This document shows, piece by piece, positions 12,001 through 21,000 of a stretch of 48,949 bases of DNA. Position numbers: made by a program. The stretch covers positions 1-48,949 of the forward strand of contig JAYUUN010000040.1 in the NCBI GenBank assembly GCA_043754535.1, read 5' to 3'. Positions within the stretch are counted from its first letter, which is position 1; each line of letters begins with the position of its first letter. Source of the stretch: Chloroflexota bacterium (lineage in GTDB: Bacteria; Chloroflexota; Chloroflexia; QHBQ01).

Positions 12001-15000
12001 TGCTGCGCGAGAAGGAAGCCGGGCGGGCTGGCCCCAGCCTACTGCTCTGCCCCACTAGCGTGGTCGGCAACTGGCAGCGCGAGGCCGACCGCTTCACCCC
12101 CGACCTGCGCGTGATGGTGCATCACGGGGCGACCCGCCAGCGCGACAATGAACACTTCGCCGCCGACGCGCACAGCCACGACCTGGTGATTAGCAGCTAC
12201 GGGCTGGCCGCCCGCGACGAGGAGCTTTTCGGCAGCGTACCCTGGCGCAGCCTGGTCTTGGACGAGGCCCAGAACATCAAGAACCCCTCCACCCGGCAGA
12301 CGCGGGCGATTAAGAACCTGCCTGCCATGCAGCGCATTGCCCTGACTGGCACACCGGTGGAGAACAGGTTGATCGAACTGTGGAGCATCATGGACTTTCT
12401 CAACCCTGGCTACCTGGGCAGTGCAGAGAGCTTCCGCAAGCACTTCGCCACCCCAATCGAGAAGGAGGCCGACCCCGCCGCCACCCAGAAGCTCCGCAAG
12501 CTGACCCAGCCCTTTATCTTGCGGCGACTCAAGACCGACTCGCGCATCATCCAGGACTTGCCACCCAAGAACGAAATGAAGGTCTACTGCAATCTCTCCG
12601 TTGAGCAGGCCAGCCTCTACCAGGCGTTCGTCAACGACATCTTGCGCCAGATCGAGGAGAGCGAGGGCATCCAGCGGCGCGGTCTCGTCCTCAAGATGCT
12701 GCTGCGCCTCAAGCAACTGTGCAACCACCCGGCCCAATTCCTGGGTGACAGTTCGGCCCTGGCTGGGCGCAGCGGCAAGCTAGCGCGCCTGGAGGAGATG
12801 CTGGAAGAAGCACTCAGCGCAGGCGACAAGGTGTTGATCTTCAGCCAATTCGCCGAGATGGGCGGGATGTTGCAGTCCTACCTGCAAGAGCGGCTGGGGG
12901 TGGAAGCTCTTTACCTCAGCGGCAGCACCGAGCGGCGCAAGCGTGAGGAGATGGTGCAACGCTTTCAGAGCGCAGATGGGCCGCCTCTCTTTATCCTCTC
13001 CCTCAAGGCAGGTGGCGTGGGCCTCAACCTGACCGCTGCCAACCACGTCTTCCACTTTGACCGTTGGTGGAACCCGGCGGTGGAGAACCAGGCGACCGAC
13101 CGTGCCTTTCGCATCGGCCAGACCAAGAGCGTACAGGTACACAAGTTTATCTGCATTGGCACGTTGGAGGAGCGCATCGACCTGTTGATCGAGAGCAAGC
13201 GTACCCTGGCCGAAAGCGTGATTGGTGGCGACAGCGAGGGCTGGCTGACCGAACTCAGCACCGCCGACCTGCGCGACCTGGTGCGTCTCAGTGCCGACGC
13301 GGTGGGGGACTAACTAATGGTGACGAAGAAGGGGGATGCAGGCAACTGGTTCTGGCAACGGTGGCTTGACGTGTTGGAGGGCGAGACCGACGAAGGCCGC
13401 TTCACGCGGGGCCGCCGCTACGCCAACAACGGCAGCATTCTCAGCCAGACTATTGCCCCTGGCAAGCTGAAGGGGCGGGTGGAGGGTAGCGAGGCCGCTC
13501 CATATAAAGTCTCTATCCGCGTGCCGCTGCCTGACGACAACCAGTGGGAGACGGTATTGCAGGCGATCCGCAACCAGCCGCTCCGCCTCAGCCGCTTGCT
13601 GGCAGGCCAGTGGCCGCCCGAAGCTGAAGACCTGTTTGCGGCGGCCAGTATCGAACTGGTACCCGAACTTGACCTTGAGCTACTATCCTGCGACTGCGAG
13701 GACTGGTACGGTGATGCTCCCTGCAAGCACCTGATCGCCCTCTGGTACAGCTTCGGCCAGCAAGTCAGCAGCGACCCGTTCAAGCTGTTTGCCCTCTATG
13801 GCCGCGACCGCGATGAGGTGCTGGCCGCCGTTGGCTTGCCTGGCCCCCAGTCGTCTGTTGGGCTAGAGCCTGCCGCTACCCTAAAGGTAGCCTCACCCAC
13901 TCTGCCCGCTGCTAGCAATGAGCAACTCTGGCAGCCAGGGCCAGCATTGCTGGGCTTCAGCACGCAGCTTGTCCCGCTCAAAGGCGAGTCGCCTAGCCTG
14001 ACGCGCCTCGGTGAACCACCCTTTTGGTCGGGCGACTTCGCCGCCGCCCTGCGTCCTGCTTACGAGCAGGTGAGCAAGCGGACGGTTCTCTGGCTGGTCA
14101 AGGCACTCAAGGCCAGCGCAGATGTAGCGGGCAAGGAGTACAAGGGCGACGAGTACGAAGATAAGGACGAGGCCGACCAGAGGGATGAGATTGCTGCCTA
14201 CGAAGATGAGGATGCAGACGAGGAAGATAATTAACGTAGGCTTAGAGGAGTAACTTTGTTGGCGAATATCAAGGCTAATAGCTTGCCAAACTGCTAAGGA
14301 TGGCGTAAAATTAGGCAAGGATCGTATTAGCGGGGAGCAATGTCGCTCAAGGGACAGGGGGATCACGCTATGCCACAGCAGCGTTACGAAAAAGAGATCG
14401 AGGATATTCTGCGGAAGGCCGAGGAAGCAGGATGGGGCAAGGTAAACGGTGCCGCTCCGCGCCCGCAGGAGACAGCCCGCCCCTTGCCACCCAACCGCTC
14501 CAACCCCACAAAGCCGAAAGCGAACCGCCGCTCGGTGCGCTGGACCCCTGGTAGCATCCTCGCCGCTGTGGCGATCTTTACCCTGCTAGTGATCATACTC
14601 TCCCCGATTGACCCCAGCCGCATCACCTTGCTGCTCAGGCCGCTCGCGGTGCTGGCCCTGATTGGTGCAGTGATCTACTACTTCAGCCAGAGTGGGCGCA
14701 CATCGCCACCCCCCGGCGAGAAGCGATGGCGCGGCCAGCCGATTCAGTTCGAGCAGCCCGAAACTCCCTTCGAGCGCATTGCCAGCACCCTCCGCCGCTG
14801 GCTCAACCGCCGCTAGCCACCCCTGTTTGACAAGCCCGCTGTCACCTGTTATACTGCGAAAGATGTTAATAAGCGTTGAACCTGGGGGAAGTCCGGTGCA
14901 AACCCGGCGCAGTCCCGCTACTGTAACCGCTATTTGCGGTGAGCCAGATCGCCCATTCCACGCAGACACGACCACCCTTCGCGAGAGAGGGTATGTGTGA

Positions 15001-18000: not shown

Positions 18001-21000
18001 TACCCATACCCCCAGTTGCAGTGGCCGCCCTTCGACCTCCTACCTGCCTTGCTGACCATCGCGCTGCTGCTGCCCCCTGCTCTGGTCAGTCTAAGTCACG
18101 CCCGTCAGCCCGACCAGACGGCAGCCAGCGTGCTGCAAAGGAGTGAGCCATGACCCTGATCGGCCTCAGTCACCCGCTCGGCCCTGCCATGCCCTCCTAC
18201 CCTGGCGTGCCAGAACCACAGTTCCACACCCTCTTTACGCATGAGCAGAGCGCAGCACGCGGCAACTACGCCCCTGGCACGACCTTCCAGATCGCCACCT
18301 ACGAGATCGCTGGCAACACTGGCACGTATGTGGATGCTCCCTTCCATCGTCATCCTGGCCTTGCGGATTTGGCGAAGCTGCCCCTGGACAGGCTGGCGAA
18401 CCTGCCTGCCATCGTGGTTGTGATTGCGCCAGAAGGGGCCATCGAGCTGGCGACTTTCACGGGGCTGGAAGTGCGTGGCAAGGCGGTGCTGCTGCATAGT
18501 GGCTGGGCGCAACGCTGGGGTGGCGACTACTTCCGCTCCGGCCCCTACCTGACTGTTGCTGCCTGCGAAGGGTTGGTGGCGGCGGGTGCGCTCCTGGTCG
18601 GCATAGATTGCGCCAATATAGATGACATGGCAGACAAATCGCGCCCTGCTCACACCATCTTGCTTGGTGCGGGCATCCCGATCATCGAACATCTCTGTAA
18701 CCTTGAGCAACTACCGGCTGAAGGTAGCCGCTTCTTCGCCGTGCCGCCCGCCATCGAAGGGGGTACGAGTTTCCCAGTGCGCGCCTTCGCCATCGTGGAG
18801 TGAGATGATCAAGCTCGAAAAGCTCAGTTACCGCTATCCTACCGCCAGCGAGTTTGCTCTGCGCGAGGTTGACCTCAGCGTGCCAGAGGGGGCGTTCGTG
18901 CTGCTGGTTGGCGGCAGCGGGGCGGGCAAGTCTACCCTGCTACGGGCTATCGCTGGGCTGGTGCCTCACTTCTACGGTGGCGAGTTTGGCGGGCGGGTGC
19001 TAGTAGACGGCGTGGACACCCTCACTGTGCAGCCTCAACAGTTGGGCGGCAGGGTCGGCTTCGTCTTCCAGGACCCAGAGGCGCAGGCGGTGACAGAGGA
19101 GGTAGAAGGCGAAATCGCTTTCGGCATGGAGAACCTCGGCCTCGACCCCGCCCTGATACGGCGGCGGCTAGAGGAGTTGATGCATCAACTCGACCTCGAC
19201 CAGCTACGCACCCGTGCGATCAGCAGCCTGAGCGGGGGTGAGCGGCAGCGGCTGGCGATTGCGGCGGCCCTGGCAATGCAGCCTGCCATCCTGGTGCTGG
19301 ACGAGCCGACTTCGCAACTCGATCCGCAAAGCGCGGAGGAGGTGCTGACCCTGCTGCAAAAGCTGAACAGCGACCTGGGTATGACGATCATCCTCTCTGA
19401 ACATCGGCTGGAGCGGGTGGTGCAGTATGCTGACCGCCTGCTCTACATGGCGGCTGGGCGCATCGTTGCCGACGGGCCACCCCGCGAGGCTCTGGCCCAG
19501 GTACCGCTCACCCCGCCATTGCTGACTCTGGCGAAGCGGTTGGGCTGGCAACCGCTGCCGCTTACTGTGCGTGAGGCGAGGCCGTTTGCCCGTTCACTCA
19601 TCTCCACCCTGCCAGCCCCTGCAAGCGGGGAAGGTGCTGCCCTGTTTAGCCCCACTCTGCCCGCCGCAAAAGAAGGCAGCACGGGCTTGCGTGAGGTGTG
19701 GTTTGGTTATGGTAGGCGGGAGGTGTTGCGCGGGGTCAACCTCGACATTCAGGGGGGCGCGGTGCTGGCGATCATCGGGCGCAATGGCGGCGGCAAGACT
19801 ACGCTGCTCAAGCTGCTGATCGGGCTGCTGCGTCCGCAGCGGGGTGATGTTCGCGTGCTGGGGCGCAATGTGGCTGGGCTTGACCCCAGCCAGATCGCGC
19901 AGCACGTTGGCTACGTGCCGCAGAATCCGGCTAGCCTGCTCTTTGCCGACACGGTAGCCGACGAGTTGCGCTTCACCTTGCGCGGCCACAAGCTGGCGGT
20001 AGATGAGGCTCGGATCACCGACTTGCTGATTGCCCTTGGCCTCAGCGGGTTGGCCGACCGCTACCCGCGTGACCTTAGCATCGGCCAGCAACAGCGGGTG
20101 GCGATTGCTGCCCTGCTCGTCGCTGACCCTGCCCTGGTACTGTTGGATGAGCCAACTCGCGGGCTGGATTACGAGAGCAAGGCGGCATTGGTCGCTTACC
20201 TGCGCTGGTTGCGGACAGCGGGCCGGGCGGTAGTGCTTGTCACCCACGACGTAGAGTTGGTCGCCGAAGTCGCTGACCGGGTGGCTCTACTGGCGGCGGG
20301 CGAGATCGCGGTGGACGGCCCGACTCGCGCCGTCCTCAGCGAGTCGCTGATCTTCTCCTCACAGATCGGCAAGCTGACCAACGGACGGTTCCTGACGGTG
20401 GCCGAGACGATGGCGGGGCAAGATGTGGGGGTGCAAGATGCGGGATGAGTCCATGCAAGGCCGCCTGATCGCTAACCTGGCCCTGCTTCTCAGCACGCTG
20501 TTGGGGCTGGCGATGCTACTCTGGCCCTTCTTCGCCAGTGCAGTCCCGCCCCTGGCTGCCACCCTGCTGCTCGGAGTGCTGGTGCTGGTGGTTGGCCTCG
20601 GTGCCGTGCAGGGGCAAGAGTTGGACGCGAAGGGTGTTGCTCTACTGGCAGTGCTGGCGGCCCTGAACGGCGCATTGCGGCTGCTGCCTACCTTTGGCGG
20701 AGCCTCCCCGATCTTCTTCCTGCTGCTGGTCGGAGGCTACGTGTTTGGAGCGGGTTTCGGCTTCCTTTTTGGCGCACTAACCATCTTCGTTTCGGCGATA
20801 GTGACTGGCGGCTTTGGTCCCTGGCTGCCCTACCAGATGCTGGCTGCCGCCTGGCTGGGAGCGAGTGCGGGGCTACTTGGTCGGTTGCTGCGCCGTTGGC
20901 AGTCTAGCATGGCCCTCAACCTGGCTGCGCTTGGCCTGCTGGGGCTGGGTTGGGGCTTGCTCTACGGTGCCTTGCTCAACCTCTGGTTCTGGCCCGCCTC

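Follow-up and report, generated by a model that had tools for sequence, protein, structure and literature searches.

What is imported by an operon that begins with a wall-anchored toroid protein, encodes a transporter of the ECF type and lies behind a cobalamin riboswitch? The operon is found on the plus strand of the window, the whole stretch of 48,949 nucleotides that was analyzed, which comes from a Chloroflexia bacterium whose genome is 88.9% complete. In our judgement it is probable (about 0.7) that this is a five-gene, adenosylcobalamin (AdoCbl)-repressed importer of corrinoids, equipped with a split, transcobalamin-like capture device. The reading is built upon the computed identity of the parts, their order and conservation, their linkage to the riboswitch and the dependence of the genome on B12.

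The leader contains all the elements of a regulated transcript. A sigma-70-type promoter-like site (14827..14855) comprises TTGACA and TATACT separated by 17 nt, with TG before the second hexamer. It agrees with the consensus at 11 of 12 positions (one site found, against 0.1 expected in shuffled sequences), and stops 5 nt short of the AdoCbl aptamer at 14861–15002. The latter matches RF01482 with 52.8 bits (gathering score 50, E = 6e-7), at the place and score given in the preliminary description. RF00174 also matches the leader (14844–14974, 36 bits), so that the two matches together cover 14844..15002; this is the only RF00174 match in the genome, consistent with the statement that there is a single cobalamin riboswitch. 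The aptamer can be aligned with riboswitches at the equivalent place in relatives. A hairpin resembling an intrinsic terminator (15047..15081; 10 pairs, eight of them G-C, and a T-rich tail) is likely to be the expression platform. When the section 14961–15090 is folded alone (minimum free energy –59.8 kcal/mol, z = –2.8) the 5′ arm of the terminator pairs with the 3′ arm of the last hairpin of the aptamer, generating an alternative anti-terminator. We infer a termination mechanism, in which a strong promoter would drive transcription into the riboswitch. With AdoCbl bound the terminator would form ahead of the first gene, while without ligand its 5′ arm would be kept in the anti-terminator.

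Four genes follow on the plus strand at 15107–16246, 16327–18153, 18150–18803 and 18805–20448, with the gaps of 104, 80, –4 and 1 nt already noted. The first (15107..16246) encodes a secreted, sortase-anchored (alpha/alpha)6 toroid protein of 379 amino acids. It has a signal peptide and, from residue 344, an LPRTG motif, a hydrophobic stretch and an RRRRS tail, all as first reported; there are five genes with sortase domains in the genome. The protein matches SQHop_cyclase_C (1.4e-11) and Prenyltrans (2.4e-6) in Pfam, while its match to the NCBIfam model SCO2321_fam (72.8 bits) is under the cut-off of 300. A DxDD motif was sought in the sequence and none was found. The quality of the structural model was reproduced (pLDDT 88.8, pTM 0.80), and squalene-hopene cyclases are once again the best fold matches. 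The claim that transcobalamin and haptocorrin are absent from the best matches should be softened in the light of a search of 48,161 chains, in which the alpha domains of intrinsic factor, haptocorrin and transcobalamin rank 10, 36 and 48 (Z = 19.5, 17.4 and 16.7, respectively). By both sequence and fold the toroid is nevertheless nearer to the squalene-hopene cyclases (Z = 24.8) than to these B12 carriers (Z = 16.7–19.5). The Cobalamin_bind family PF01122 is matched by 19 of 62 members of the toroid family, and not by the toroid of the window itself. We propose that this protein is the transcobalamin-alpha-like half of the capture device.

The second gene (16327..18153) encodes a fusion protein, of 608 amino acids when numbered from the GTG at 16327; the reading frame is open from a TTG at 16258. 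In this numbering CbiQ spans residues 315–510, as before, and the first 308 residues have no Pfam match even at E ≤ 10. What, then, is the extension that had been assigned to no known family? It resolves into a signal peptide, a transcobalamin-beta-like domain of the SLBB, beta-grasp kind (143 amino acids, 16432..16860), a Pro/Thr linker and an extra transmembrane helix seen in a hydropathy scan (residues 284–302, 17176..17232). The EcfT (CbiQ) transmembrane core occupies 17269..18153 and matches PF02361 with 31.5 bits (cut-off 25); a genome search puts the match at 17269–17856. The identity of the beta domain emerges from its predicted structure (pLDDT 93.6, pTM 0.86). Foldseek lists 17 hits with E < 0.01, and every one of them is transcobalamin, haptocorrin, intrinsic factor or 3u7z. 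When 48,161 chains were compared using VIA-align, the first five places went to haptocorrin, two transcobalamins, intrinsic factor and 3u7z, with Z = 11.9–12.5, and the next match falls to 6.3. At the level of sequence Pfam, DUF4430 among its families, gives no match for the domain, and the profile of the domain finds nothing in the PDB. The family is large, with 1796 representatives at E ≤ 1e-3, and there are seven conserved cysteines in the domain.

The extra helix takes the chain from the outside of the cell to the cytoplasmic start of EcfT. In the relatives the beta domain is a separate, membrane-anchored protein, and 69 of 71 such stand-alone proteins have a C-terminal anchor to which the extra helix corresponds; this accounts for the presence of the helix in the fusion. 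The beta–EcfT fusion itself occurs in the window and, among 95 related loci, in four that belong to the family of the window.

The remaining genes complete the transporter. The fused EcfA–EcfA′ ATPase (547 amino acids, 18805..20448) has two ABC_tran domains and is as originally described, matching TIGR04520 at 370 bits (cut-off 315) and TIGR04521 at 361 bits (cut-off 330). The operon had been thought to encode no recognizable S component. Yet the next gene (20438..21244, 268 amino acids) shares 11 nt with the end of ecfA, stop codon included. Its product scores 39.0 bits with PF12822 ECF_trnsprt, for which the cut-off is 30.7 (E = 1.1e-9). CbiQ, ECF_ATPase_1, ECF_ATPase_2 and PF12822 thus all exceed their curated cut-offs within the operon. 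Because the S-component gene adjoins ecfA, the end of the operon is moved from 20448 to 21244. The start at 20438 is backed by a 97%-identical protein of 268 amino acids, with 20423 and 20453 as other possible starts. There are 197 relatives in the database, many named as ECF S components, and the nearest Atlas clusters are also ECF S components. Among PDB sequences the family profile matches best the chain 6fnp_A of CbrT, a B12-specific S component (E = 4.3e-9, residues 5–180 of 182), with FolT second at E = 0.089. The cytoplasmic protein of the cyclase family (217 amino acids, 18150..18803) matches PF04199 at 69.8 bits as previously found, and the arylformamidase model TIGR03035 at 50.5 bits, far under its cut-off of 223. 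Its gene is present in just one of 95 related loci, from the same genus, and it is a recent passenger, a genus-specific insertion that lies outside the mechanism.

How general is this arrangement? We fetched 20 of 35 toroid-bearing relatives, preferring longer contigs and omitting three unpublished genomes, and every one has an Rfam cobalamin riboswitch just 5′ of the toroid gene. A further 80 Chloroflexota loci were examined with a riboswitch model (R1) built from the order's own sequences, for which E-values are rough; 74 match on the strand of the toroid, and in the six without a match no more than 291 nt are available upstream. After removal of five duplicates there are 95 distinct loci, 89 of which have the riboswitch at the toroid gene, the remaining six being truncated by contig ends. 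The commonest gene order is toroid, beta, EcfT, EcfAA′, S (22 loci), followed by toroid, beta, S, EcfT, EcfAA′ (nine loci). Beta and toroid are united in one polypeptide in four loci, and in three of 30 scanned family members. In 11 of the 95 loci the beta profile detects no beta gene beside the toroid, and thus the pairing is not obligatory.

The genome has B12-dependent enzymes, comprising NrdJ and the products of two genes of the methylmalonyl-CoA mutase family, together with two B12-binding domains and a PduO-type adenosyltransferase. CbiC, CobS and BtuF-type proteins were not found in the 88.9%-complete sequence. Amongst 41 related genomes, including the unpublished G007, G012 and G015, CbiC was found in none and CobS in one, a relative outside the order with no toroid match; within the order CobS was found in 0 of 40 genomes. 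The bacterium depends on B12 and appears incapable of making it.

These parts suggest the following mechanism. A dedicated ECF core of EcfT, fused EcfA–EcfA′ and a CbrT-like S component that would bind and carry B12 in the membrane could import complete corrinoids at the expense of ATP. The wall-anchored toroid and the beta-grasp domain, taken jointly, are reminiscent of a transcobalamin divided into its two halves. They may clamp the corrinoid outside the cell and hand it over to the EcfT-docked S component, which would raise the efficiency of capture at very low B12. Corrinoid binding by these two parts, their pairing and the hand-over are our inference. It is supported by the predicted beta fold, whose carrier matches stand far above all others, by toroid and beta genes that are neighbors behind riboswitches across Chloroflexota, and by the fusions. 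The proposal that the toroid and the EcfT extension capture corrinoid is to this extent supported, but they do not stand in for a missing S component. We reject their role as substitutes for a binding subunit, since the very next gene downstream codes for a CbrT-like S component; they are accessories to an otherwise complete transporter of the ECF-CbrT type.

Might the ECF-CbrT core import B12 alone, with the toroid and beta proteins playing some other surface role under B12 limitation? They could sequester or store corrinoid against competitors, strip the carriers of other organisms, or take up incomplete corrinoids or lower-ligand precursors. The ECF-CbrT of Lactobacillus delbrueckii functions without such partners in the account given in PMC5997447, the 11 loci lacking a detectable beta gene are accommodated readily, and a wall-anchored toroid may be far from the membrane. 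In Chloroflexus sp. MS-G the toroid–beta pair shares an operon with a His_Phos_1 (CobC-like) gene and CobS, nucleotide-loop genes that fit precursor salvage in that organism. Against this, the covalent fusion in the window and four related loci places the beta domain at the transporter, and the gene order is fixed inside one riboswitch-controlled unit. Moreover, as CobS was found in none of the 40 genomes of the order, precursors could not be completed in this lineage. On balance we regard a separate role as unlikely.

A quite different substrate is harder to reconcile with the data. Cobalt transporters are often under the control of B12 riboswitches, and a CbiMNQO-type cobalt importer would fit a T component of the 'Cobalt transport protein' (CbiQ) family and an ATPase that matches cbiO models. 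But the names CbiQ and CbiO are applied to ECF T and A subunits in general, PF12822 and CbrT are what the S component matches, and no match to CbiM or CbiN models occurs in the operon. As CbiC, the marker of corrin-ring synthesis, was not found in the genome or in any of the 41 relatives, there is no need of cobalt for B12 synthesis, and a cobalt importer is very improbable indeed. Import of haem, or another non-corrin tetrapyrrole scavenged by the transcobalamin-like parts, has a precedent in Lactobacillus sakei Lsa1836–1840, with the same five kinds of parts, where deletion impaired haem accumulation (bioRxiv 10.1101/864751); and a ferrochelatase-family search of our genome gave weak matches only (32.7 and 27.8 bits). 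It is opposed by the cobalamin riboswitch that 89 of the 95 distinct loci have at their toroid gene, by an S-component profile that lies closest to CbrT, where hemin is not a competitor, by the link to CobS and the CobC-like gene in Chloroflexus, and by a B12-dependent genome in which B12 synthesis genes were not found. We consider haem import improbable, and retain corrinoid import with extracellular capture as the preferred reading.

Papers of 2007 and 2013 had already predicted pieces of this locus. Burroughs, Balaji, Iyer and Aravind (2007; PMC1796856) describe SLBB proteins, secreted or anchored in the Gram-positive manner, that have a toroid as fusion partner or neighbor. The operons concerned include CbiO-like and CbiQ-like genes, and the hosts are without B12 synthesis; the authors predicted scavenging of B12 or its precursors, and attributed the clade mainly to Gram-positive bacteria. 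Our locus fits that description. The riboswitch link, the S component and the CbiQ/EcfT fusion are absent from the passages of that paper located by a term search, and the word 'riboswitch' occurs nowhere in it. The beta family of the window differs from the 2007 proteins in matching no Pfam model and in a distinct seven-cysteine signature. Sun et al. (2013; PMC3766115, Tables S1 and S5) list the cobalamin-riboswitch regulons of Chloroflexi, which the unit of Chloroflexus sp. MS-G resembles, where a riboswitch is followed by toroid, beta, His_Phos_1, CobS and CbiQ. There the toroid and beta genes appear as locus tags only, without function; from gene order, Haur_3809 and Cagg_2179/78 would be toroid/beta genes.

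The closest known transporter is ECF-CbrT of L. delbrueckii (PDB 6FNP), reported to carry cobalamin and cobinamide in an ATP-dependent manner (PMC5997447), and the likeness extends over nearly the full length of the S-component family profile. CbrT uses a shared housekeeping ECF module with no extracytoplasmic partners, whereas here a single riboswitch-controlled operon contains dedicated T, AA′ and S genes and adds two surface proteins. Our S component is also longer at the N-terminus, by about 65 residues that include two hydrophobic segments. The sole experimentally studied operon of such architecture is lsa1836–1840 of L. sakei, where deletion and complementation led to a role in haem uptake being assigned (bioRxiv 10.1101/864751). 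By its description the part list is the same: S, fused AA′, T, and secreted beta-like and alpha-like proteins. All are separate proteins there, and neither the abstract nor section 6 mentions a riboswitch. In the mammalian carriers transcobalamin, intrinsic factor and haptocorrin an (alpha/alpha)6 toroid and a beta-grasp domain sandwich one corrinoid, and the same two-domain logic is found here. The modeled beta domain superimposes on them with Z = 11.9–12.5 (rmsd 1.7–4.6 Å over 97–103 residues) and the modeled toroid, itself nearer to terpene cyclases, on their alpha domains with the Z-scores given above; sequence identity is 11–19% across the two domains. In the window the halves are separate polypeptides with separate anchors, the wall and EcfT, and while the mammalian proteins deliver to an endocytic receptor, this system would deliver to an ABC importer.

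The operon encodes a complete, dedicated ECF transporter. Four of its genes, all on the plus strand, were recognized in the preliminary description, and both their identity and their spacing are borne out when the Pfam and NCBIfam assignments are repeated. The toroid gene (15107-16246) begins 104 nt past the aptamer of a cobalamin riboswitch, and is followed after a gap of 80 nt by that of EcfT with its N-terminal extension (16327-18153). A cyclase-family gene (18150-18803) overlaps the EcfT gene by 4 nt, and a fused EcfA-EcfA' (18805-20448) lies a further 1 nt downstream. The operon had been described as having no recognisable S-component, but this is wrong, because a fifth gene on the same strand (20438-21244), overlapping the ecfA stop codon, encodes a 268-aa membrane protein that both matches PF12822 and has a CbrT-like family profile. 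The original observation was thus real but one gene short, the unit ends at 21244, and a transporter lacking an S component is ruled out. The T component scores 31.5 bits against PF02361 (cut-off 25), the two ECF-type ABC ATPase domains 370.1 against TIGR04520 (cut-off 315) and 361 against TIGR04521 (cut-off 330), and the S component 39.0 bits against the ECF S-component family PF12822 (cut-off 30.7). All the parts of a group I ECF transporter are therefore present, i.e. a T component, two ATPase domains and an S component.

The S component belongs to a sizeable family. Of 8000 candidates that were scored, 197 are related at E <= 1e-3, with 'ECF transporter S component' as the name of many, and a 97%-identical relative has the same length of 268 aa. 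The nearest ESM-Atlas clusters are also S components, with scores of 0.95-0.96. As a single sequence the protein has no match in the PDB, and a family profile is needed. A profile made from the protein with 50 of its 120 listed relatives gives one clear match among solved structures, 6FNP chain A (E = 4.3e-9), aligned in two stretches that span residues 5-180 of the 182 in the chain; the runner-up is a folate S component at E = 0.089. In the available text of its report, 6FNP is ECF-CbrT of Lactobacillus delbrueckii, which carries cobalamin and cobinamide, and for which hemin is no competitor (PMC5997447). The S subunit of the operon is thus CbrT-like, and is predicted from this relationship to bind and transport cobalamin or cobinamide. 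Its N-terminal ~65 residues (20438-20640), containing two hydrophobic segments, lie outside the CbrT-aligned region.

The leader of the operon contains a cobalamin riboswitch aptamer. Both Rfam cobalamin models (clan CL00101) pass their curated gathering scores here, the AdoCbl aptamer RF01482 at 14861-15002 on the plus strand with 52.8 bits (gathering score 50), and the broader RF00174 at 14844-14974 on the same strand with 36 bits (gathering score 31.5). The latter is the only RF00174 match in the 132 contigs of this genome, which is 88.9% complete. A near-consensus promoter (TTGACA-17-TATACT, plus strand 14827-14855) agrees with the consensus at 11 of 12 positions, where shuffled sequences give an expectation of 0.1 sites, and ends 5 bases before the aptamer. 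A terminator-like hairpin (15047-15071, plus strand) with a T-rich tail behind it separates the aptamer from the start codon of the first gene. When 14961-15090 is folded alone the 5' arm of the terminator pairs with the 3' arm of the last aptamer hairpin (MFE -59.8 kcal/mol, z -2.8). The layout of promoter, aptamer, terminator-like hairpin and alternative pairing is that required of a transcriptional OFF switch, whereby plentiful AdoCbl would lead to early termination of the operon.

What is the N-terminal extension of EcfT? Apart from its signal peptide, the fusion protein, read from the GTG at 16327, contains six hydrophobic segments, of which one (residues 284-302) precedes the CbiQ core (residues 315-510). 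The 143 residues that follow the signal peptide (16432-16860, plus strand) form a domain of a large family, for which a search of 1.84 billion proteins gives 1796 representatives at E <= 1e-3 and, at the stricter E <= 1e-10, 1129. Comparison of the extension with Pfam at E <= 10 gives nothing meaningful, the domain has no curated Pfam match, DUF4430 (PF14478) included, and no Pfam family matches the domain in any of 30 relatives scanned out of 150 listed proteins (E <= 0.01). Weak matches to the NCBIfam family SCO2322_fam occur in 28 of these 30, all under the cut-off of 85, and the protein itself scores 18.2. Searches of the PDB by phmmer, and by a profile of the domain aligned with 52 short family members, are equally uninformative. 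In that alignment several tryptophans and seven cysteines are conserved; the cysteines are invariant or nearly so, and include a CFCQC stretch, while four of the tryptophans are invariant.

The sole informative comparison for this extension is therefore that of fold. The AlphaFold model of the domain has a pLDDT of 93.6 and a pTM of 0.86. Using Foldseek against the PDB, all 17 matches listed with E below 0.01 (1e-4 to 3e-3) are transcobalamin, haptocorrin, intrinsic factor or the bacterial protein 3u7z. An independent search of 48,161 representative chains using VIA-align finds haptocorrin (4kkj, Z = 12.5, rmsd 1.7 A over 97 residues), bovine transcobalamin (2bb6, Z = 12.1), the beta domain of human transcobalamin (5no0, Z = 12.1), 3u7z (Z = 11.9) and intrinsic factor (2pmv, Z = 11.9), after which Z falls to 6.3. 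Since the two fold searches agree, we read the extension as a predicted transcobalamin-beta-like beta-grasp (SLBB) domain, after which come a Pro/Thr-rich linker and an additional membrane helix. This beta domain may bind a corrinoid together with the toroid protein.

The toroid protein is built of just one toroid, some 280 residues long, and carries both a signal peptide and an LPRTG anchor. The signal peptide, the LPRTG sequence at residue 344, and the hydrophobic stretch and RRRRS tail had all been noted before and are confirmed, and the earlier structural model is reproduced (pLDDT 88.8, pTM 0.80). Five sortase-domain genes are present in the genome. Among the 48,161 chains the closest folds are squalene-hopene and oxidosqualene cyclases, with Z of 23-25, and terpene cyclases score 21-25. 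The alpha domains of the B12 carriers come lower in this unbiased search, with intrinsic factor at rank 10 (Z = 19.5), haptocorrin at 36 (17.4) and transcobalamin at 48 (16.7). By sequence, the best matches of the toroid profile in the PDB are again squalene-hopene cyclases (4e-25), and none of the 62 matches at E <= 1 is a B12 carrier. The protein itself does not match PF01122, which is the cobalamin-binding family of eukaryotes, at E <= 0.1; this family is matched by 19 of 62 aligned relatives at this threshold (best 8.2e-7), always beside a stronger match to Prenyltrans or SQHop. The score against SCO2321_fam is 72.8 (cut-off 300), and the actinobacterial SCO2321/SCO2322 pair is related to the toroid and beta families without being identical with them.

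Class II terpene cyclases carry a catalytic DxDD motif and are intracellular enzymes of two domains. We find no D.DD in the sequence of the toroid protein, and its score against TIGR01507 is 40 bits (cut-off 431). Squalene-hopene cyclase, or any other class II terpene cyclase, is ruled out because the protein lacks DxDD, has just one toroid and is secreted. The toroid by itself is uninformative, and a transcobalamin-alpha-like role is proposed for it on account of its partner and its genomic surroundings. Prediction of a complex between toroid residues 28-340 and the beta domain, both supplied as alignments, gives a score of 0.01 (mark 0.32), a result that weighs neither way on binding.

How general is the association of the toroid with a cobalamin riboswitch? 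The toroid gene is present in 36 of 41 genomes, comprising that under study and 40 relatives, three of which (G007, G012 and G015) are unpublished. We fetched 20 of the 35 toroid-bearing relatives, giving preference to longer contigs and leaving aside the unpublished genomes, and all 20 have an Rfam cobalamin riboswitch directly upstream of the toroid gene. A wider scan, using an alignment of toroid sequences and one genome per species, gave 80 loci, all of them from Chloroflexota, the one phylum that the survey covers, including Herpetosiphon aurantiacus DSM 785, Chloroflexus, Oscillochloris, Kouleothrix, Ardenticatena and many Anaerolineae. A covariance model built from 19 of 21 riboswitches (two with long inserts were omitted) matches 74 of these 80 loci, each time on the strand of the toroid gene and in 73 cases upstream of it. 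In the remaining case it is the beta and S genes that flank the match (L057:2134-2285); there the sequence upstream of the toroid gene ends with the contig, and a second riboswitch may be present upstream. The six loci that are not matched have no more than 291 nt of upstream sequence each. Since five loci of the wider scan duplicate earlier ones there are 95 distinct loci, of which 89 have the riboswitch.

The order of genes in these loci was determined by profile searches of all stop-to-stop ORFs, tblastn having under-detected both the S component and the beta domain. Two arrangements predominate: toroid, beta, EcfT, EcfAA', S in 22 of the 95 loci, and toroid, beta, S, EcfT, EcfAA' in nine, with most other loci being versions of these that are cut off at contig ends. 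A toroid gene with no detected adjoining beta gene is found in 11 loci. Proteins of 752-899 aa in which beta and toroid are fused occur in four (L048:3762-6017, L091:1052-3748, L104:4995-7412 and L112:5109-7397). Each of these single-ORF paralogues shares its riboswitch with an adjacent extra beta gene that stands alone and, at three of the four loci, with an extra stand-alone toroid gene as well.

Beta and EcfT form a single ORF in four of the 95 loci, all within the family of the genome under study. Such a fusion is what would arise if the stop codon separating EcfT from a membrane-anchored beta protein were lost, since 69 of the 71 stand-alone beta proteins that are complete have a hydrophobic anchor at the C-terminus, with basic residues after it. 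The N-terminus of EcfT is cytoplasmic in ECF structures. The topology fits such a fusion, as the anchor would take the chain across the membrane to the inner side, where it meets the N-terminus of EcfT.

Both neighbours of the cyclase-family gene are translationally coupled to it, by the 4-nt overlap and the 1-nt gap, yet it is found in just one of the 95 loci, from the same genus. Its product matches only the broad PF04199, and kynurenine formamidase (arylformamidase) is not supported, the TIGR03035 score of 50.5 bits being far under the cut-off of 223. Kynurenine formamidases have the sequence HxGTHxDxPxH. Two metal-binding histidines may have been replaced in this protein, because it reads N-T-G-T-Y-V-D-A-P-F-H at the corresponding place. 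Upstream of the operon (10074-14816) there are genes for an SNF2-family helicase with DUF3670 and a SWIM zinc-finger protein, together with a 158-aa ORF that has no Pfam match and that is kept directly upstream of the riboswitch in three family-level relatives (L014-L016). After the operon (21423-24523) come a response regulator and a histidine kinase with three GAF domains. A kinase of the GAF histidine type also adjoins the operon of Chloroflexus sp. MS-G on the opposite strand (L094:11035-12447), although the occurrence of such kinases near both operons may be coincidence.

The physiology encoded by the genome is that of an organism that uses B12. We find a class II (B12-dependent) ribonucleotide reductase, two proteins of the methylmalonyl-CoA-mutase family, two B12-binding domains and a PduO-type adenosyltransferase; CbiC, CobS, a BtuF-type binding protein and a MetH activation domain were not found in this 88.9%-complete genome. 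A further EcfT gene lies elsewhere in the genome, and may belong to a housekeeping ECF module distinct from the operon. None of the 41 genomes (51-93% complete, including the three unpublished) yielded CbiC, and CobS was found only in the one genome outside the order, itself without a toroid match. The order appears to depend upon imported complete cobamides, although genes not found in genomes this incomplete may yet be present.

Thus the computational analysis reveals a B12 riboswitch and its terminator-like hairpin, a complete importer of the ECF-CbrT type, a wall-anchored toroid protein and a transcobalamin-beta-like domain tethered to EcfT. By the usual definition, ECF transporters work with no extracytoplasmic binding proteins. 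We propose that this one uses a binding device that is partly built into its T subunit, and put the probability at roughly one half. The toroid on the wall and the tethered beta domain would close on a corrinoid as a split transcobalamin, clamping it like the two domains of that protein, and the beta domain would then hand it to the CbrT-like S component on the same EcfT. If so, the fusion would be the genetic proof that the device acts at the transporter, and the family would represent the bacterial stock of the animal B12 carriers. The earlier suggestion that the surface parts capture the corrinoid is retained in this proposal; that they do so for a transporter lacking an S component is not, given that a CbrT-like S is encoded.

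The main rival explanation is that the system takes up haem. It derives from the lsa1836-1840 operon of L. sakei, which has a similar build and which is assigned to haem in the available passages of bioRxiv 10.1101/864751. A search of the present genome for ferrochelatase, which bears on the need to import haem, gave weak and ambiguous matches. Against haem stand the cobalamin riboswitch in 89 of 95 loci, the CbrT-like nature of the S component and the B12-dependent enzymes of the genome. The genes of Chloroflexus sp. MS-G argue in the same direction, as genes for CobS and a His_Phos_1 (CobC-like) protein lie between beta and EcfT (L094:8428-9827); no EcfA or S gene follows within that locus. 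The riboswitch evidence consequently bears upon the question of substrate raised by the L. sakei assignment, and we favor import of a corrinoid.

Many microbes need B12 but few of them make it, and its uptake systems therefore shape microbial communities. The locus suggests that a whole order of Chloroflexia are B12 auxotrophs living on one uptake system. A literature search covering few subscription journals found no description of the beta-EcfT fusion, of the apparent order-wide auxotrophy, or of one system that joins a riboswitch and a CbrT-like S component to a split pair of transcobalamin-like parts, and no function assigned to the toroid and beta genes of Chloroflexi. Individual elements have been described. 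In its available passages, Burroughs et al. 2007 describes SLBB proteins of bacteria that resemble transcobalamin, are secreted or anchored to the wall, and are either fused to toroids or encoded beside them. Their operons, from hosts without B12 synthesis, include genes like CbiO and CbiQ, and B12 scavenging is predicted (PMC1796856). A Chloroflexi riboswitch operon of Sun et al. 2013 corresponds gene for gene to the Chloroflexus sp. MS-G locus, and in the available part of that paper the presumed toroid and beta genes are bare locus tags (PMC3766115). The present locus unites these separate published predictions, i.e. the transcobalamin-like proteins (2007), the riboswitch-controlled but unnamed genes of Chloroflexi (2013) and CbrT as a B12-specific S component (2018). 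The underlying B12 uptake system is thus of a known, computationally predicted kind, and what is novel is the beta-EcfT fusion in Chloroflexia, which provides a simple handle and a clean test case for asking if an external device for capture can serve an ECF transporter.
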